Source of the DNA: Owenia fusiformis
Taxonomy: Eukaryota
Reading direction: 5' to 3'
Length of the DNA: 64,000 bases
NCBI GenBank assembly: GCA_903813345.2
Contig: CAIIXF020000001.1
Location: 19,964,001-20,028,000 of the forward strand
Shown in pieces: positions 762 through 24,789 of this stretch (position 1 is its first letter; the number at the start of each line of letters is the position of its first letter). Under the pieces are notes generated by a model, which was not told the origin of the DNA, searched no databases, and was given only the letters and a program-made list of their open reading frames with translations. A program made the translations under genes and the position numbers.

Positions 762-10341
<9,580 letters not shown>

Positions 10342-15174: not shown

Positions 15175-16705
15175 TTAATATAGATGTACTTTGCCAATGA
15201 TTTGATACGCAATATATTTTTATAATGAAGTAATATTTCTGTAGATCTGACCTATGGTTAATAATTAAAAATGGATTGGAAACAATGTTTTCAATGTCAA
15301 AGAAATTGTAGATTTCCTTTTGTTGGATTAAGTGTGAAACTTGTGTAATTTATGATTGACATTGATCAAATATTGTATTTGTTTTTATTATCATTTATTG
15401 CAGCAAAGTTAAGATATAACAAACCAATGGGAAAGAATCTATCATGGATTGTATGTTGCTTCATGCAGCACATCTGATTGGTCCTATATGTTAGACAAAC
15501 TTGACTGGAGGGTATGCAGATCCTATGATAAAAATGATAAAAGTAAGCTGATACCTGTATGTCTCATTATTTATTCACATGTAGGCAGGCATGACATCCA
15601 AATATCCAGTCAATCAGAACACACCATTCAAACTTATATGCATTTTACATTTTACAACTGATTAAATATTAACAATTTACTTGATTACCTTCCTCAATTT
15701 TGTAAGCAGTTGAGTGAATAGTACCAATTTGAATAAGTATAAATCAATAACAAGGTAGGTACTTATGCTGGTCAAAATGTTAAAAGATTGAATCCTTTTG
15801 AACAGGGAAACCACTCTCATGCAAAGTATTGAGCTTTATTTTACATCAAATGTATACATGTATATTTGCAGGATTATAAAGCAGGAAAGATTCCAAATAC
15901 TCGAATCTTACCACTTTGGCTGTCAGGAGGTCATCTTCCAACTAACAAACATTGAACAATGGGAATACAGGAGGATAGCTTTCCCAAGATCATCTGGGCT
16001 TATTCCAATAACATTCAAATAAATCCAGTTCCCAAATACAATTTCCATATGCATCAGATATATTGGATGTTCATGTTATCCCACATGGAATATCCAAGCA
16101 TATGTGACTACAGTAAAACCTGTCTAATCCGAACACCCATGGGACTATTGTTGGTCGGGGGGGATTATCATTGTTCAGTCCACTTAATACTTAGTCAGAA
16201 AACAATACATGTTGTTGCTGAGTTTATTCTACAATAAGCCTATAGCCTACATGTATATGCTATGTTTTATTTACATATTGAACAATTTCATTATTTTGGG
16301 AAAAATAACTCTTTAATTTTGGCAAAAACTTTGTAATACACTGAATAAGTATATGAAAGTCTTGTACAAAATCTTATGCTTATTAAATGACCTATCTCAT
16401 ATTATGGTTACATAGCACTGCTTTACTTTAGCTTGAAAAAGTCGTTCATTGTTGTTTGTTTCTTGGCACTTTTAGCATTAGCAATATTTGAGTAGATACC
16501 CTCTTTAATTAAAAAGAATTTTTCATGAGTGCTCATTCGAGATGATGCATAATCTTTCAAAATATCAAGGGCATTCAGTATGTCAGAGGCATTTTAGTGA
16601 TTTTTTTTTTTTTTTTATTTTTTGATTTTTTTTATTTCTCTATTCAAACAGTACAAGTACAATAATTAGAACAGTTCAGATATTTTTCACACCACCTCCA
16701 TTCAT

Positions 16706-19700
16706 TCAGACATTTGCAACAGTCATACTTTTAAGTTCAGGTACATAATAAAACATATTTTTTTCAAATTGCGCCTCATACAAATTGGGATTCACTTCGT
16801 CGAACTCTTTAATAAAAATATAGTACTTAATTGCAAGGGTAAGTCTATTTGGTAAGATATTTTTCTTATTAGCTTGCCTTCCAAAAACCATGTCATGGGC
16901 GTTAAAATCGAAATCAACTTTAAATAAACGCTTTAAATTCCCTTTGATTGCTTCCAGAAATATTTGAATTCTTTTGCACTCCCAGAATTTGTGTTTTAAC
17001 GTATCTCGAAAGGCACAATAGTTACATTTAGAGTCATTTTTAATGCATATCTGCGCTAAAAAGGCATTTGTAGTGCAGATACCATGAAGTATTTTAAACT
17101 GAAGTTGTCGCGTTTTATTCTGTTTCGTACACATATAAGGCATTTTAAAATAATCGGTTCTCTTTAATTCACGATCATGTTTGTCTTTATATAACGGTTC
17201 CAAGAACTTGTTTCCATTTAATATTGTTTGAATTGATTTAACCGTTATACTAGAGATTGTCACCTGTTTTTCACCAAGTTTCAAATACACGAGTTCTTCC
17301 TGTATGCTGGGTTCAAAGGTCGAACTTAAATCTGATTTCAATAAAAATTTCCAATCATTTGGTATAGCCGATATGATTGAAAAATACTCAAGAAAGTTGA
17401 TATTAATATTATACTTAGTCTTAAACTCATTGTACTGTAAAAAAGCCCCATTCTCGTTAAGAAGGTCATTAATATAAATGACCCCCTTTTCCATGACATG
17501 TTTGTACATCACCTCCTTATCATTAATTAGAATTGATTTGTTATTCCAAATTATTTCACCTTTAACCCCTGAGCTGGTTCTAGGCGGCGACCTATTTCTT
17601 AATTCTGAATAGTTTCGAAGCAAATTCATATAAAAGGTAGGAACACTGTGTGCCAATGTTTTAATATCATAATTACACTGCAACAAAAAACTCAGTCCTC
17701 CAAGACGCTTGAAATAAACTTGAGGAATAAGCTTCCAGTGACTGGTTCGTGTGTCGAGTAAACGTCTTAACCACATTAATTTCAAGGCTTTCTCCATTGT
17801 GAACATATTAATCATTCTTAGACCCCCATCCTCAAAATCCCCTATTAAAGTATTTCGCTTAATTTTCTCACCCTTTCCTCCCCATAAAAAAGAATAGACT
17901 AGTCGTTGAGCCTTCGTCAAGATATCATCAGGCGTATTGGTCATTGTCATCGAGTATATTAGCTTCGACACTGCCTGGGACTTAATTATGAGTACTTTTC
18001 CATAAAAAGTAAGATCTCGCTTTGACCACAATATAAGAACCTTTTCAAGCATATTTAACTTTCTCTCAAAATTATCTGTGTTATTTGCATTTGTGTCATA
18101 TGATATTTTTATCCCTAAAAGTCTACTTGGTATCTTTACCCATTTCAGACCAAAAAGGTTTATTTCATTATTATGACGATCACTTCCAATATACATACAC
18201 TCTGTTTTTTCTCTATTAATACATAAACCTGATATTAGTCTGAAATCTTCAAAGATGTCCAATGCTTTTTGTAATGACGTTACGTCCTTAAGAGTCAACG
18301 TGGTATCATCTGCAAAAATCGCTAGTTTTTGACTTGCCTCGCCAATGTCAATTCCCTGTATACCATTGTCTTGTCTAATTTTTAAGGCTAGCATCTCTAT
18401 AACAAGTAAAAAATTCAAGCAACTGATCGGGTCCCCCTGCCTGCATGAGCGTTTAACACTAAACCAGCCAGTCGACACGTTGTTGTTAAGGACGCAACTT
18501 TTAATATCATTATTAAACATCTTAACCCATCGGATCAGGTCATCTCCGAAATTAAACACCCTTAGTACATGCTCAATATAATCAAACTCGACACTGTCGT
18601 AGGCTTTGAGAAAATCCACCATACAAACGATTCCATGTATACCCCTCTTCTTGGTGTAGTCCAAAAGATCCTCGACATAGCGAATATTTTCTCCGATAAA
18701 CCTCCCTTCAATAAAAGCAGTTTGATCCGATCCAATAATTTTACCTAGAACAGCATTTATTCTCTGTGCTATTGATTTGGATGCAATTTTATAATCAATA
18801 TTTAGCAAAGTAATTGGTCGCCAATTTTTTAAATATTCTGAATCTTTTTCTCCCTTCGGTATAAGGGATATAACACCTTGCCTTTGGCTCATTGAAAGAA
18901 TACCCTTTTCAAAAGCAAAATTGAATGAGTTAACTACGGATTCTTTAATGTCACCCCAAAAATGCTTGTACCATTCGGAGCTAAGACCGTCACTTCCGGG
19001 TGTTTTTCCATTTTTAAATCTCTTTAAGGCTCTAAAACATTCATCAGTTGTTAAGGTTCCCTCACCCGATAATTGTTCATTATTATCTAATTTATCTATT
19101 TGTATTCCTTCATCAAAACGTCTAAATTTCTCACAATCTTTTAATGATTTCGATGAATATAGTTCTTCATAAAATGCTTTTATTTGATTAAGAATTTCAG
19201 TCTCATCCGTAACAATGGCTCCATCAACAATAAGTCTTGTAATGTGTTTTTTATTATGGTTAGATTTTTCCAAATTGAAAAAATACTGAGTACTTTTCTC
19301 CCCCTTTTCAACCCATTCAGCCCTTGAGCGTTGGATTGCCCCTTCAGCTTTATACTGATAAATGTCATTTAGCTTAGATTTTGCTTCATCGTATTTCCTA
19401 CAGTTGTCTGCATTAAGATTATTTCCGTTGACCAGCTCACTGTCTAGATTCTCTAATAATTTAATTAGCTCTATCTCTTGCGCCCTAAGTGCCCTGGCCT
19501 TTTGCTTAGAAAACTCAATAGTTCGAACTTTAACTTTGTATTTTAGAAATTCCCACATTTGGATATTATCAAGGTCATTATATTCTGTTTTAACATCTTT
19601 CACCAATTTCCTGATAATATTTTGATATTCTGCATTCTCAATCAGTTTATTATTAATTTTCCAAAAGCCAGGGCCTCGTTTATTATTTCCATTTGACATA

Positions 19701-20464
19701 GTGTCTAGTAATACACATTTGTGATCAGACTTAACCGATGGAGCTATCTTACAGAGGCTACTGTTACCCATGTTTCTTTTAATGAACCACATATCTAACC
19801 TACTTTTGGAAAGAGAATTTCGCATGTCATCTTTTGCATAAGATTCATAGGTATATTGAATTTTTGTGGGGTTCTGATGCCTCCATATATCAACGAGGTC
19901 ATAAAATTTAACTAAATCCACCAGCGCCCCACGAGATGCATCATTATTTTGAATATGTTCAACATTTTTTGAATATCTGTCTAATCTATTATCCATAGTA
20001 ACATTAAAATCTCCCCCTAGAATCAGATTTTCGTGTGAAAATTCTGTTGTTATAATTGCTGATACATGGTCGAAAAACTCTTTCCTAACATTTTCATCAT
20101 TTGGAGCATATATATTGCATAACGTGTAGTTTTTACCCTCACTTTGTATTTGAATGATGATGTATCTTCCTTCAGTGTCACTCAACTGTTTTATGATGGA
20201 TATACGGTTATTTCCCAATAAAATAGCTACTCCCCGTTCATTTCGAAGTCTGCCATGAGAAAATATACACTTCCCTAACCCCCATTCATTTTCCCATCTC
20301 TTACTATCATCTACACTTGAATGCGTTTCTTGAAGGAATACAACATCATTCTTAAAACGTTTTACGTATAAAAATATAGATATTCTCTTCGAGTGACTCC
20401 TAATGCCTCTTACATTAAGAGTGCATAATCTTAAATTTGTGTGTGGACCTTTAGTAGCAGCACA
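16706..20464 (-). CDS. LINE ORF2: APE endonuclease + reverse transcriptase + C-terminal CCHC zinc knuckle (1252 sense codons, stop to stop)
   Basis: The frame is open 82 codons upstream of the TTG at 20218 used by the ORF track. EN motifs: TLNVRGI, FLQETH, NIYAPN, GGDFN, SRLD, SDH. RT motifs: KTPGSDG, NWRPITLLNIDYKI, DFLKAYDSV, RQGDPIS, FADD. C-terminal CNYC...HKFWEC. Confidence 0.95.
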   Translation of the reverse strand, partial: CAATKGPHTNLRLCTLNVRGIRSHSKRISIFLYVKRFKNDVVFLQETHSSVDDSKRWENEWGLGKCIFSHGRLRNERGVAILLGNNRISIIKQLSDTEGRYIIIQIQSEGKNYTLCNIYAPNDENVRKEFFDHVSAIITTEFSHENLILGGDFNVTMDNRLDRYSKNVEHIQNNDASRGALVDLVKFYDLVDIWRHQNPTKIQYTYESYAKDDMRNSLSKSRLDMWFIKRNMGNSSLCKIAPSVKSDHKCVLLDTMSNGNNKRGPGFWKINNKLIENAEYQNIIRKLVKDVKTEYNDLDNIQMWEFLKYKVKVRTIEFSKQKARALRAQEIELIKLLENLDSELVNGNNLNADNCRKYDEAKSKLNDIYQYKAEGAIQRSRAEWVEKGEKSTQYFFNLEKSNHNKKHITRLIVDGAIVTDETEILNQIKAFYEELYSSKSLKDCEKFRRFDEGIQIDKLDNNEQLSGEGTLTTDECFRALKRFKNGKTPGSDGLSSEWYKHFWGDIKESVVNSFNFAFEKGILSMSQRQGVISLIPKGEKDSEYLKNWRPITLLNIDYKIASKSIAQRINAVLGKIIGSDQTAFIEGRFIGENIRYVEDLLDYTKKRGIHGIVCMVDFLKAYDSVEFDYIEHVLRVFNFGDDLIRWVKMFNNDIKSCVLNNNVSTGWFSVKRSCRQGDPISCLNFLLVIEMLALKIRQDNGIQGIDIGEASQKLAIFADDTTLTLKDVTSLQKALDIFEDFRLISGLCINREKTECMYIGSDRHNNEINLFGLKWVKIPSRLLGIKISYDTNANNTDNFERKLNMLEKVLILWSKRDLTFYGKVLIIKSQAVSKLIYSMTMTNTPDDILTKAQRLVYSFLWGGKGEKIKRNTLIGDFEDGGLRMINMFTMEKALKLMWLRRLLDTRTSHWKLIPQVYFKRLGGLSFLLQCNYDIKTLAHSVPTFYMNLLRNYSELRNRSPPRTSSGVKGEIIWNNKSILINDKEVMYKHVMEKGVIYINDLLNENGAFLQYNEFKTKYNININFLEYFSIISAIPNDWKFLLKSDLSSTFEPSIQEELVYLKLGEKQVTISSITVKSIQTILNGNKFLEPLYKDKHDRELKRTDYFKMPYMCTKQNKTRQLQFKILHGICTTNAFLAQICIKNDSKCNYCAFRDTLKHKFWECKRIQIFLEAIKGNLKRLFKVDFDFNAHDMVFGRQANKKNILPNRLTLAIKYYIFIKEFDEVNPNLYEAQFEKNMFYYVPELKSMTVANV

Positions 20465-21169
20465 CTATAAGCTTTGAGTAAAATAAAATACAATTATCCA
20501 ATAGTCCTTGCACATATAATTCGAGGCATATAAAATATTCAATTTCTAACAAATAATTTGTCCAAACCAACATCACATTCATCCACCTTTCATTCCATTC
20601 ATACTTTACATTCATAACTTCATTTCCCATATATAAAACACTTGATAATAAATAAAAGAAGCAAAAGTTTACACTTTTCAGGCGCTTGCTAAAGTAACAT
20701 AATTTACAGTACGAATAATCCAGCTTGGCCAAAAGCCAAGCTTCAAGCGCTAACCAAACATATATACAACTTGATTTTTGCATTTCCAAAGCACTCCATT
20801 CGCTTACTTTTGACCGCTTAAAAAATCTACACGCATTATACATACCATTTAGTGGTTTATAGAGCACATTATACGAGCATTACAGCGGTCGATTTCAGCA
20901 TAACTGATCTACTGTGTATAGATTTTGCCATCGCGCGGACGTCAGTGCGCTATCAAAACAATAACAACATTTTGTTTGTGAAATCTGTAGTGCTCGTATT
21001 TTGTTCCTATAATGATCAAAGAATACATAAATGATACACATGATTACAGAATTTTTGTAAAAAACTCGGCATATCGCACTTTGCTCGTGGGATAGATGCA
21101 CCAACTAATGCTCGCACTATCCTGGTTCAATCTATCACTGTATATTGTATATATTGCTATGTGCTTGTG

Positions 21170-22642
21170 TTATGCCTTGTCAATCTTCCTGATATGGTTT
21201 CTCGTTTCCATGAGAGCGTTGCCACCAAGATTTTGACCTCTCCAGGCACTTGTGTCACTAGCAGTTTTATCATTTAAACTACATCCTGTGCCCATAATCA
21301 TATCATGTGGGTTACACTCTCCTATGGTTTTGGACCCAGTTCTCATCAAAAGAGCTCTGATTTGCTTGTGCACACTGAATTTAATAGCCGTAGCTTTTAT
21401 CACATGGCTGTCACTTACTTTTCTCCATGATTGGCCATCACTTCCTCTGATTTCAGATATAAGCCTTCTTATTTGTCTGGGGTCAGATGTTTGTAGCACC
21501 TTGTCTGCAGTACGCTGATCCTTCATTACGATAGCTCTATTATAGGCTAGGTATTGCGTCACACTACGGAACATCGTGCCTTCGCATTCAAAGGGTGTGC
21601 AGCTATCTGGGCCAAGGGGGGATGTGGACGAATTGTACAAAAATACCGTGTCCAAATCTCGCATTGATGAGTTGTCATTCAAAAGTTCCATTGGTAATTT
21701 TTGTATGTCTCCAATCTTATATCGCTCATCTTTCACTATAAGGGTGTCTGCGATCATGGCACATTTCCATTTTAGTTCCTTGGCCTTTTTGAAATATGGC
21801 ATCAACAGGCGTCTGTTATCCTCAACTTCCTTTGGAAAGCTCTCAGTAACGTATATATTTGATCCTTTAAGACTAAAACGTTTTCCCCACACTGTCTCTC
21901 TATCCTGGTACCAGTTGAATTTCACGGTCATTGTTCTAGTGAATCTGTACTTTTCTTTAGGACCAAGTGGGATTCGATGTACACGCTCGAAGCGAATATT
22001 TTGCACCTCATCCTTCGACATCTTAAGTCTATTGACAAAGAAGTGCTTCATTACGTCTCCTGGATTCTCGCCATCCTCCTCAGGAATGTTCTGAAAGTGG
22101 AGTGCACTTCTACGAGAGTACACATTCATATCCAGAAGTTTAGTGTTCAGTTCATCATACATTTTGTTATATTGATATGACATATTCTTTATAGCAGTAG
22201 ACATGGAAGATGATTGAATTTGAATATCCTTAAGACATTCTTCGTGTTCCTCTACTTTGATCTTATTCTCTTCACTGACTTCCTGGGCATAGGTGATACC
22301 ACTCTTCAGTTCACTTATTTCCTCCTTAAATGCATTTTTCATGTCATTTGTGTTTTTTCGAATATCATCTCTCAATACATTCATTTCATCATGAAATTCC
22401 GAGTTTTGTTTCGTGATTTCTCTACTCAAGCATTCCATACGATCAATAAGGATCCGTCCTTCTTCACTAATATTGACATTATCTGTTACTACAGGATTTC
22501 CTTTGGGCGTGGTACATGCTGCCTCCTCACTATCAGTCTCTTCAGTATCACAAACCTTTCCCTCATCATTTGACATTTCTGAACTTGATCTAGTGTGCCT
22601 AGTGGTATTACGTGCACGAGCCTTTTTGGCTTTACCCGGCAT
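21170..22642 (-). CDS. LINE ORF1 (coiled coil + RRM-like + CTD-like) fused to a C-terminal NADAR/YbiA-like domain; 490 aa from first ATG
   Basis: First ATG at 22642 (MPGKAKKAR). Heptad-rich segment, then L1-type YSRRSALHFQNIPE..FERVHRI..MTVKF..IYVTESFPKEVEDNRRLL. Last ~155 aa: PFECEGTMFRSVTQYL..KFSVHKQIRALLMRTGSKTIGECNPHDMIMGTG..WRGQNLGGNALMETR, matching the NADAR layout. Confidence 0.9.
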   Translation of the reverse strand: MPGKAKKARARNTTRHTRSSSEMSNDEGKVCDTEETDSEEAACTTPKGNPVVTDNVNISEEGRILIDRMECLSREITKQNSEFHDEMNVLRDDIRKNTNDMKNAFKEEISELKSGITYAQEVSEENKIKVEEHEECLKDIQIQSSSMSTAIKNMSYQYNKMYDELNTKLLDMNVYSRRSALHFQNIPEEDGENPGDVMKHFFVNRLKMSKDEVQNIRFERVHRIPLGPKEKYRFTRTMTVKFNWYQDRETVWGKRFSLKGSNIYVTESFPKEVEDNRRLLMPYFKKAKELKWKCAMIADTLIVKDERYKIGDIQKLPMELLNDNSSMRDLDTVFLYNSSTSPLGPDSCTPFECEGTMFRSVTQYLAYNRAIVMKDQRTADKVLQTSDPRQIRRLISEIRGSDGQSWRKVSDSHVIKATAIKFSVHKQIRALLMRTGSKTIGECNPHDMIMGTGCSLNDKTASDTSAWRGQNLGGNALMETRNHIRKIDKA

Positions 22643-22949
22643 GACTGATTTATTATGGGCAGATCTCTTACACAAAGGACTGGTGTACGTGCATTTCGTA
22701 TAAATCAATTTTTTCACTCACCACGATAGTATACTATCCTTCATATATCCTACGACTGTTCAGGACATATCCAACATTAGATAATAGCAAATAGTAACAC
22801 GTTTGTAATCGTCTATTTACCTCTACGCCTGAAAATAAGAAAACTTTTACCGGAGAATCTTTTTAGACCTCCATTTTGTTTCACCCTCACTTTCACTTTC
22901 ATTTTAGTGATAGGATATTACGAAGTTAAATTTTTTCTCTTTCTCATGA

Positions 22950-23450
22950 TATAATCTTGTCTGCAAATGTGTCTGTGTTGTCCTGTCTATAAAACATTTA
23001 CTGATTGAATCCTAGCTGTCATAACAGACCCATGGGATATAAAACAGTCAAGACTTGTTCATAATCCAAATCAAAAACATCCAGTTAATTTAAAATAAGG
23101 AAAAACCAATTATCTCCCAGATTCTCACCTTTCTCTTAGTCCAAATCAAAAACATCCAGGTAATTTCTAATAATGATAGAACAATTATAATCTTGTCTGC
23201 AAATGTGTCTGTGTTGTCTCTGTGATTATAAAACATTTACTGATTGAATCCTAGCTATCATAACAGACACATGGGATATAAAACAGTTAAGACTTGTTAT
23301 TCATAATCCAAATCAAAAACATCCAGTTAATTTAAAATAAGGATAAAGCAATTATCTTCTTGATTCACACCTTTCTCTTAATCCAAACATAAAACATTCA
23401 GTTCTTTTCTAATAGGATAAACCAATTAACTCCCGTATTCACACCTTTCC
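22950..23450. repeat. ~240-bp tandem duplication with shorter sub-repeats
   Basis: TATAATCTTGTCTGCAAATGTGTCTGTGTTG... occurs at ~22950 and again at ~23186. Confidence 0.85.
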
Positions 23451-24789
23451 TGTTGTTTTCCACAATTAGGGATGTCATTGAGACTTAAATAATTTAATTA
23501 GGACAATATTGGTTCTTTGATTACATTGCATATGTAAAGATAATAAGAACTACAACATTGACTCAATATGTGGCTATTATTGAAATGTCCAGACATTTGA
23601 TTCCTGATAAAATGTTCAGATTAGACAGGTCGGTTTTTCAAATCTGGTTGTTCACTGTTCAGATTAGGTGTTCAGATTTCAAGGTTTTTTTTAACATGGG
23701 AGTCAATGGGAGGAAAAAATGGGACCGAAAAAAAGTGTTCAAATTGGAAGGTGTTCGGATTAGCCAAGTGTTCAGATATACAGGTTCTACTGTATTTGAA
23801 AAATATTAAATGTAGGCATAATGTTCAAAATAAAACTGTTATTATAAACCTTGAAGTAAATGTTGATCAATGTGAAAAAACTCAACATTTATATGTTTTT
23901 TATGTTGAACTCTACCTGTATATGATAGTACATTTAATTATGCTTTGGGTGAAAATATATTTTACTGTATATTCTGAGAACACATCTGCCATCGAAGTTT
24001 GTATAACTAGTTTACATTTTTTAAAGAAGTTCCAATCATATTTTTAGTTCTTGGCAAGTGTGCACAGTCACAGTATGATGTTTCAATTTTATATATATCC
24101 TTATCAATTAGGCCTATATGTATTGAATAAGATATGTCCAGTGCTGCCATATTTGAATTGGATAAATAAATATTTTTACTTTCGCTCTACACAGATTTTT
24201 ATTTGTCAATCCACATGATCTATACCCAGGGATCCATAATAATTTCAGAATCTTTTTATTTCATTTAACTGTCACATTATTAGAATAGTACTGGCAAATG
24301 GATGGATATGCAAAGTATGTGTATTATTTACCAATTTATCCAATCGGTTTTGAAAGACAGGAATCATTGATTTATCCATTTAATTAGTTAATGAAAACAG
24401 GGAATGAAATTCTGCACAAAGGGCTAATGTGAAAAATACAGTCCAATCTAGTGGGATCCGAGTTCTTGATCTTAAAACAATTATCGCTGAAGCTAATTGA
24501 CGAAAGCCGTGAACATCTCTATGACTTTTATCGCACATTCAATAGTTGGCAAAAATAAATAAGAAAATTTGGACATTACACGCTAAAAAAGTTGATCATC
24601 ACTTTCACCAGTCCATGCCATTTTAGAAGAAATCACATTTTTGCGTGTTCTTTTTGTTTCTGTCGTTTTTTTCTTATTCACGCGACATTTAATGAACAAT
24701 GAAATATAAAATTAATTTACTTAAACTACTTATTTCATGAAATACAATTCGGATATAAAACAGGGGCATGTAAACACAATAATAATATA

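Follow-up and report, generated by a model that had tools for sequence, protein, structure and literature searches.

A long interspersed nuclear element (LINE) of the annelid Owenia fusiformis encodes an ORF1 protein (ORF1p) that ends in a YbiA-family NADAR domain. The element lies on the minus strand of a 64,000-nt stretch of contig CAIIXF020000001.1 (GenBank assembly GCA_903813345.2, positions 19,964,001 to 20,028,000), hereafter called the window, to which all coordinates refer. Fusions of this kind are already known from the oyster, and the Owenia element is a further member in another phylum. Our analysis adds a fold-based assignment of ORF1p to the Type II architecture, evidence that the fusion family is large and diverse, a constraint on the NADAR domain equal to that on the ORF1 core, a conserved catalytic set, and the replacement of a catalytic glutamate in Owenia. 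Our best explanation, to which we assign a probability of about 0.5, is a young LINE whose Type II ORF1p carries a NADAR domain that would act as a base-ADP-ribose glycohydrolase on the ribonucleoprotein (RNP) of the element, with an activity that may have been weakened or retargeted in the Owenia clade.

An L1-type ORF1 protein fused to a NADAR domain

A first-pass annotation, made from the letters of the window, had proposed that ORF1 (open reading frame 1) runs without a stop into a NADAR domain, and this was borne out. The frame is intact over 490 aa, and its C-terminal part matches Pfam PF08719 with an E value of 7.7e-29 (101.5 bits; curated cut-off, 35.1) over profile positions 14 to 163 of 163. 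Phmmer searches against the PDB returned the NADAR protein 8bau_A (E 5.5e-9) and YbiA, 2b3w_A (E 0.0029). We also built an AlphaFold2 model of ORF1p on an alignment of 49 family members (mean predicted local distance difference test score [pLDDT], 86.8; predicted template modeling score [pTM], 0.70). Residues 333 to 489 of the model form a compact helical NADAR domain with the YbiA fold (block pLDDT, 86 to 98), and a Foldseek search with the model placed 8bau at the top (E 1e-9; target TM-score [TMt], 0.74) and also found YbiA 2b3w (E 1.9e-6; TMt, 0.78), at a probability of 1.00.

Upstream of the NADAR domain, the model predicts a disordered segment (aa 1 to 60), a helix (aa 61 to 176) whose block pLDDT climbs from 59 at aa 61 to 70 up to 97 and is at least 90 from aa 91, an RNA recognition motif (RRM)-like fold (aa 180 to 267), and a C-terminal domain (CTD)-like fold (aa 271 to 330). 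Foldseek against the PDB retrieved the human L1 ORF1p trimer (2yko_A; E 1.9e-7; TMt, 0.67), followed by further chains and by 2LDY and 2W7A, and the RRM superimposed on 2w7a with a TMt of 0.70. In a Type II ORF1p, the RRM and CTD come after a coiled coil, and by its fold the Owenia protein is of this type. In contrast, neither Transposase_22 nor Tnp_22_dsRBD of Pfam matched ORF1 at E ≤ 1, and a feature-based search of a protein atlas gave leads only (0.81). The L1-type identity that the first pass had assigned to the N-terminal part therefore holds by fold and not by sequence profile. Human LINE-1 ORF1p has the same succession of coiled coil, RRM, and CTD and likewise precedes an ORF2 with an apurinic/apyrimidinic endonuclease (APE) and a reverse transcriptase (RT), whereas it is 18 to 20% identical to the Owenia protein and ends after the CTD, with no enzymatic domain.

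Stand-alone ORF1 proteins of 236 to 287 aa are homologous to the core and have their C terminus exactly at the start of the NADAR domain. In a midpoint-rooted FastTree phylogeny of the RRM-CTD region, built from 147 of 150 sequences after the removal of 3 short ones, they group in a clade of their own (support, 0.997). A 242-member atlas cluster labeled Mollusca, 78% of which carries Impact_N (PF01205), aligns to aa 114 to 475 of ORF1p with a TM-score of 0.40 to 0.45 and may represent an ORF1 with another C-terminal accessory domain.

The fusion is enclosed in an element with identical 11-bp target site duplications (TSDs), CATTTTAGTGA, the only two occurrences of this 11-mer in the window when both strands are scanned. 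The element has an A-rich tail and a downstream ORF2 and displays hallmarks of the L1 superfamily (APE endonuclease and RT in ORF2, A-rich tail, and TSDs). When mapped, reads from paralogous copies of the flanking repeat jump 6331 to 6345 nt, matching empty sites, and a contig from a DNA run stops at 22895, close to the 5′ boundary of the element. The in-frame fusion inside the TSDs, the A tail, and the empty-site reads together indicate that ORF1 and NADAR transposed as one unit, as had been concluded in the first pass from the TSD-bounded element.

The ORF1-NADAR family and its Owenia clade

We scanned 1.84 billion cluster representatives (50% identity) with HMMER, using ORF1 as the query, and obtained 8943 matches at E ≤ 1e-3, of which 285 reached E ≤ 1e-30. 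When the query was split in two parts, the ORF1 core and the NADAR domain were found in one protein in 142 of the best 150 representatives; the remaining 8 are proteins of 2 to 7 tandem NADAR domains. The possibility of a domain confined to this copy and decaying neutrally, which the first-pass annotation had named as fatal to its proposal, is contradicted by these counts. The fusions have a median pairwise identity of 31% and stem mostly from ENA, JGI, and Logan contigs of 1 to 10 kb. Several of them bear the IMG name "ribA/ribD-fused uncharacterized protein," in agreement with the earlier suspicion that such proteins are hidden in databases under host-like names. In a profile search with 49 fusions, Owenia was the only named organism, and the range past Annelida is given by the oyster literature and by environmental contigs. 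Single-protein scans for a second locus with ORF1-NADAR ahead of an ORF2 found no relative in metagenome contigs (P0024 and P0017), genome contigs (P0029 and P0291), or viral contigs (P0181 and P0027). Judged from sequence, the ORF1-NADAR family is large, old, and diverse, and it consists mainly of environmental and marine-invertebrate sequences.

Across the family, the NADAR domain is as constrained as the RNA-binding core, since the mean identity over 2000 sampled pairs was 35.9% for NADAR and 36.0% for RRM plus CTD, compared to 17.3% for the coiled coil. Residues described for the NADAR 8BAU of Phytophthora nicotianae (Pn; chain index equal to the number in the paper plus 2; PMC11543638) were located in ORF1 from the HMMER alignment of the two sequences. 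In 144 fusions, the column of Pn-E43, which is E88 of the E. coli C7 NADAR (Ec-C7) and belongs to the SxEQ[YF] motif, holds E in 134 sequences (T in 4, A in 3, Q in 2, and D in 1). The phosphate-binding lysine (Pn-K50, Ec-C7 K95) is K in 131 and R in 7, Pn-W89 is W in 143, Pn-E125 is E in 137, Pn-D130 is D in 121 and N in 14, and Pn-W133 is W in 119, F in 12, Y in 5, and M in 3. Of the 144, 88 have all six residues (EKWEDW), and the wide retention of this set makes the family as a whole look like an active YbiA-type enzyme. In the numbering of the window copy, W406 was scored as invariant and K421, F422, E442, G451, G453, N471, and G474 as at least nearly invariant.

At the six active-site columns, the window copy has T362, R369, W406, E442, D447, and M450. 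The NADAR domain recognized in the first pass is confirmed, but the pattern "SV.QY" given there masks the replacement by Thr of the catalytic Glu that 134 of 144 fusions keep in SxEQY. E442 is the equivalent of Pn-E125 (E127 of the 8bau chain) and lies in the last strand, where Glu denotes the YbiA family, Asp the BC4488 and DarT1-linked NADARs, and His the phage NADARs (PMC11125620). The Phytophthora enzyme (8BAU) and E. coli YbiA (2B3W) share with the Owenia domain the fold, the last-strand Glu, and the equivalents of D130 and W89; they are stand-alone enzymes, and the Owenia domain differs by Thr at E43, Met at W133, and Arg at K50. Pfam searches of both ORFs revealed no ADP-ribosyltransferase domain in the element, which consists only of ORF1 and ORF2, and neither Asp nor His stands at the last-strand position. 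With Glu at this position and no partner transferase gene in the element, we excluded a domain of the DarT1-NADAR toxin-antitoxin type or of the phage anti-DarT type.

The closest ORF1 proteins are labeled Owenia fusiformis (P0001, P0002, and P0003), as is a fragment, P0010. In the RRM-CTD tree, these four and the window copy group to the exclusion of all other sequences (support, 0.998). P0001 (434 aa; 94% identity by BLASTP and 97% by phmmer) has a core 100% identical to that of the window copy and a truncated NADAR part, with similarity lost after about residue 417, so that at least one genomic copy has a broken NADAR domain next to an identical core. P0002 and P0003 are 57% and 41% identical to the window ORF1, and the NADAR frame is open in these two as in the window copy, the three complete Owenia copies. 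The first catalytic Glu is absent from all five sequences (T, T, T, T, and A); because the clade is exclusive, the replacement probably happened once. W406, E442, and D447 are kept in the Owenia sequences, with N in the D447 column of the partial P0010 and with the truncated P0001 reaching W406 only. In the Pn-W133 column, the four sequences that reach it have M, F, S, and T and none has Trp, while P0001 falls short of it.

The exact ORF1 sequence is contained in a 124-member atlas cluster labeled Annelida. Compared to the dominant read variant of four public runs, ORF1 of the window shows 2 differences in 1473 nt, the synonymous L432L and T44A, and such a low number shows that the insertion is young. 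Contigs of independent runs span the ORF1/NADAR junction with 2 to 6 differences and 0 gaps. We regard the element as recently inserted and probably still competent. The summed contig depth in a DNA run, which is not a copy number, was about 5000 to 6700 near the 3′ end of ORF2 and about 350 to 430 over ORF1, and this fall from 3′ to 5′ is the gradient expected of 5′-truncated copies. No second copy of the element was found in the window by tblastn with ORF1 and ORF2 as queries, and no RNA run with the element was found among the indexed runs.

Proteins of 3 to 7 tandem NADAR domains comprise P0009 (Haliotis rufescens LOC124129589; 4240 aa), P0008, P0011, P0012, P0023, P0051, and P0126. All their other Pfam domains are below the curated cut-off. 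They are 27 to 31% identical to the ORF1 NADAR domain, compared to 20 to 23% for YbiA and 8BAU, which places them among its closest non-LINE relatives, and a host protein of this kind is a possible source of the captured domain.

ORF2, the inter-ORF spacer, and the insertion site

The endonuclease of ORF2 matched structures of L1 endonucleases with E values of 1e-15 to 1e-17, and ORF2 aligned with residues 3 to 881 of human L1 ORF2p with an E value of 2.2e-78, whereas R2 proteins were far weaker (about 1e-18). Relatives of ORF2 at 35 to 41% identity, among them a protein of the coral Oculina patagonica and a record filed under the genome of a clam symbiont, are as abundant as the ORF1-NADAR relatives. 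By its sequence, the element is an L1-superfamily LINE; the named ORF2 relatives and the atlas did not discriminate between the Tx1 and L1 clades. Some full-length APE-RT ORF2 proteins are filed as bacterial, such as P0291, from a metagenome-assembled genome of Candidatus Thiodiazotropha endolucinida, and "Pseudomonadota" atlas clusters; they are most likely host (clam) DNA binned with symbiont genomes.

The ORF2 frame begins right after a TAG, and its first ATG is at codon 157. A contig from another run covers 20145 to 22844 (2700 nt) with 6 substitutions and 0 gaps, so the long spacer and the ATG-less start of ORF2 are features of the family rather than damage or a private insertion. A 130-codon ORF of odd composition lies in another frame (20843..20451, minus strand) and extends 13 nt into the ORF2 frame. 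Reinitiation, a non-AUG start, and frameshifting are candidate routes for the translation of ORF2.

The LINE is inserted in a very high-copy repeat (16301 to 16600 and 22900 to 23428) that is abundant in RNA and DNA runs, where its reads are tens to hundreds of times deeper than those over the LINE. Within this repeat, a 242-bp unit occurs twice, at 22950 to 23428. The insertion site is crossed by paralogous copies of the repeat, which the LINE family might target in the way that Tx1-type elements target specific repeats. Rfam gave no match across 15500 to 24500.

Table 1. Features of the Owenia element in window coordinates (UTR, untranslated region)
Feature	Position	Strand	Basis or remark
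Whole LINE element, L1 superfamily	16601..22899	minus	6299 bp; identical 11-bp TSDs, A-rich tail, ORF1 and ORF2 on the same strand
5′ TSD, CATTTTAGTGA (plus strand)	22900..22910		Perfect 11-mer
5′ UTR, 257 nt	22643..22899	minus	Between TSD and ORF1 ATG
ORF1, 490 aa, intact	21170..22642	minus	Open reading frame
ORF1p coiled coil, aa 61-176	22115..22462	minus	Single long helix in the model; weak Pfam coiled-coil matches
ORF1p RRM-like and CTD-like core, aa 177-330	21653..22114	minus	Foldseek to human L1 ORF1p 2yko/2ykp/2ldy/2w7a
YbiA-family NADAR, aa 336-485	21188..21637	minus	Pfam PF08719; 8bau and 2b3w by sequence and fold
Inter-ORF spacer, 705 nt	20465..21169	minus	Unusually long; no gaps in the contig that covers 20145 to 22844
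ORF2 open frame, 1252 codons	16706..20464	minus	No ATG at start
APE-type endonuclease of ORF2, aa 14-251	19712..20425	minus	Pfam Exo_endo_phos E 8.9e-7, Exo_endo_phos_2 E 0.0016
Reverse transcriptase of ORF2, aa 536-773	18146..18859	minus	Pfam RVT_1 E 4.3e-28
A-rich 3′ tail	16601..16637	minus	3′ end of the element
3′ TSD, CATTTTAGTGA (plus strand)	16590..16600		Perfect copy of 5′ TSD

Possible roles of the NADAR domain in the LINE

LINE ORF1 proteins are usually viewed as passive RNA chaperones, a view with which an enzymatic NADAR domain contrasts. The esterase- and PHD-bearing ORF1s of CR1/L2-type LINEs are unlike the Owenia element in domain, LINE clade, and presumed chemistry alike. They resemble it in having an accessory and potentially enzymatic domain on a LINE ORF1 (Types III/IV; PMC5203782). 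The first-pass annotation had left room for the fusion being unpublished. However, a YbiA-family NADAR domain has been noted in ORF1 of several Tx1 LINE families of Crassostrea gigas in Repbase (PMC12477816, Genome Biol 2025). In a literature search on NADAR or DUF1768 with transposable elements, this was the sole relevant report, and the earlier record on LINE ORF1-NADAR amounts to one passing remark on the oyster Tx1 elements. Oyster and Owenia elements share a LINE ORF1 with a YbiA-family NADAR domain and a lophotrochozoan host but differ in phylum, the oyster side being compared by its description only (PMC12477816). Tx1 ORF1s are described as RRM/zinc-knuckle proteins (Type I-like), in contrast to the Type II fold of the Owenia ORF1 (PMC5203782). 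A Gypsy lineage of Ectocarpus also has a retroelement-borne YbiA-family NADAR domain kept within the lineage, but here the host is a stramenopile, the element has long terminal repeats, and the domain, mostly with bacterial best hits, is fused to the N terminus of Pol instead of an RNA-binding protein (PMC12477816); this domain seems to have been acquired independently. The orphan NADAR of T4-like phages (gp30.3) neutralizes DarT1 and is thus a precedent for counter-defence by a NADAR-carrying genetic parasite (PMC11825919, PMC11125620). Phage NADARs differ from the Owenia domain in being separate proteins, with His rather than Glu at the last-strand position and with a known opposing transferase (PMC11125620).

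NADARs strip ADP-ribose (ADPr) from N2 of guanine in DNA (PMC11543638). They also act on guanosine-ADPr in RNA, while the tested NADARs are inactive on ADPr linked to 5′ or 3′ phosphates of RNA and DNA (PMC11833690). Cytidine-ADPr is a further substrate, with a sponge NADAR and YbiA-type proteins among the active enzymes (PMC12945103). Inactivity on phosphate ends makes a role against end modification of the PARP or TRPT1 type less likely.

The data show the architecture, the mobility as a unit, the spread of the family, and the conservation of residues, whereas the substrate, the catalysis, and any role against a host ADP-ribosyltransferase are inferred. L1-type ORF1p forms a trimer through its coiled coil and coats its RNA in cis. 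By trimerizing and coating the element RNA, the Owenia protein would hold many NADAR domains on the RNP. These domains would act as base-specific ADP-ribosyl glycohydrolases and remove ADPr from guanine, and possibly from cytosine, on LINE RNA, nascent cDNA, or target DNA in its single-stranded state; left in place, such adducts would obstruct translation or reverse transcription. Thr or Ala has taken the place of one of the two catalytic Glu residues in the Owenia clade, probably in a single event, and the domain was kept while its identity fell to about 31 to 40%. With this Glu replaced, the domain of the Owenia element is probably less active, directed at another target, or limited to binding. 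That the NADAR domain is functional and selected is very probable. That it acts on ADP-ribosylated nucleic acid is a tentative view, to which we give slightly less than an even chance, and that it serves as a counter-defence is doubtful.

Several observations weigh against a glycohydrolase role on the RNP. The window copy has Thr, Met, and Arg at Pn-E43, Pn-W133, and Pn-K50, and the HMMER alignment puts Ser, Ser, Gly, and Ser at Pn-R79, Y84, D86, and R93. Within Owenia, the NADAR domain is less conserved than the core (identity to the window copy of 58 versus 70% for P0002, 40 versus 46% for P0003, and 31 versus 56% for P0010), which would fit relaxed constraint. RNA-seq depth over ORF1 is low, with a 3 to 4:1 direction bias whose meaning depends on the library type. 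The LINE context of the 142 other fusions is deduced from the ORF1 core and contig sizes only; a weak hint at such a context is a 5517-nt contig listed for the ORF1-NADAR protein P0027 and also for the ORF2 relative P0189. We know of no annelid ADP-ribosyltransferase that targets LINE nucleic acids, although no search for one was made. Finally, Ec-C7 mutants at the Glu that is replaced in Owenia failed to rescue cells from DarT1 (PMC11543638). The mutant data point in both directions, however: E88A has only a small effect in vitro, and K95R is active in vitro but does not rescue cells (PMC11543638).

Such residue changes lend weight to the view that the Owenia domain is catalytically dead and serves as a reader or binder of ADPr, of nucleotides derived from nicotinamide adenine dinucleotide (NAD), or of nucleic acid, or as a structural or oligomerization add-on. 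The first catalytic Glu is missing from all five Owenia sequences, Trp is missing at Pn-W133 from the four that reach it, and several contacts of the Phytophthora enzyme with the phosphates and adenine of ADPr are not conserved, and yet the domain is still open in P0002 (58%) and P0003 (40%), with W406 and other residues kept. We consider this view somewhat unlikely, as the domain still has E442, D447, W406, and a basic residue in the Pn-K50 column, as the E88A mutation had a minor effect on hydrolysis by the bacterial NADAR in vitro (PMC11543638), and as Glu in 134 of 144 fusions argues for an enzymatic role as the ancestral state. A chimera produced by annotation or assembly, or a host NADAR exon caught by a single decaying copy, could be suspected from the missing Transposase_22 match and the truncation in P0001. 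We reject this reading as almost certainly wrong, given the continuous frame inside the TSDs, the gapless coverage of the junction by contigs of independent runs, the same architecture in 142 of the best 150 representatives, and the support of both halves by fold.

The remaining alternatives concern the substrate. The domain might process RNA in another way, acting on NAD- or ADPr-linked 5′ ends or caps or on ADPr derived from splicing or ligation, as proposed for NADARs of RNA viruses. RNA processing has been suggested for NADARs borne by transposable elements (PMC12477816), and a Nucleocytoviricota atlas cluster that joins an mRNA cap methyltransferase to NADAR provides a lead only. Such a role is improbable because the tested NADARs are inactive on ADPr linked to 5′ or 3′ phosphates (PMC11833690) and Pfam found no cap-related domain in ORF1 or ORF2. 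Finally, the domain could be a small-molecule N-glycosidase, engaged in damage control of riboflavin intermediates or acting on free NAD or ADPr with no direct action on nucleic acid, as its last-strand Glu of the YbiA family and the "ribA/ribD-fused" names in IMG might suggest. We regard this as very improbable: a metabolic role brings no obvious gain to a retrotransposon and leaves unexplained the fusion to an RNA-coating protein in at least 142 diverged clusters, and YbiA-type enzymes themselves hydrolyze guanosine-ADPr and cytidine-ADPr (PMC11125620, PMC12945103).

A bolder version of the glycohydrolase reading, which we deem unlikely, is that base ADP-ribosylation is an anti-retrotransposon defence of marine invertebrates that is answered by the ORF1p-fused NADAR domain in a large LINE lineage. 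Guanine-specific DNA ADP-ribosyltransferases of invertebrates include pierisin and the clam enzyme CARP-1. Guanine or cytosine would be modified by pierisin- or CARP-like enzymes or by other transferases, and the LINE would be the eukaryotic counterpart of the T4 NADAR against DarT1; pierisin-family transferases are mentioned alongside the work on RNA substrates (PMC11833690). The replacement of Glu in Owenia could then be a later step of the arms race, in which the domain was retargeted or converted to a decoy or reader.

The NADAR domain has been kept in at least 142 diverged clusters (of the best 150 representatives) as tightly as the ORF1 core, which implies that retrotransposition in many invertebrates is influenced by base ADP-ribosylation of nucleic acids or by some related chemistry of NAD derivatives. 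The physiological role of animal NADARs is stated to be unknown (PMC11125620), and ORF1-NADAR elements provide a concrete, testable context for their function.

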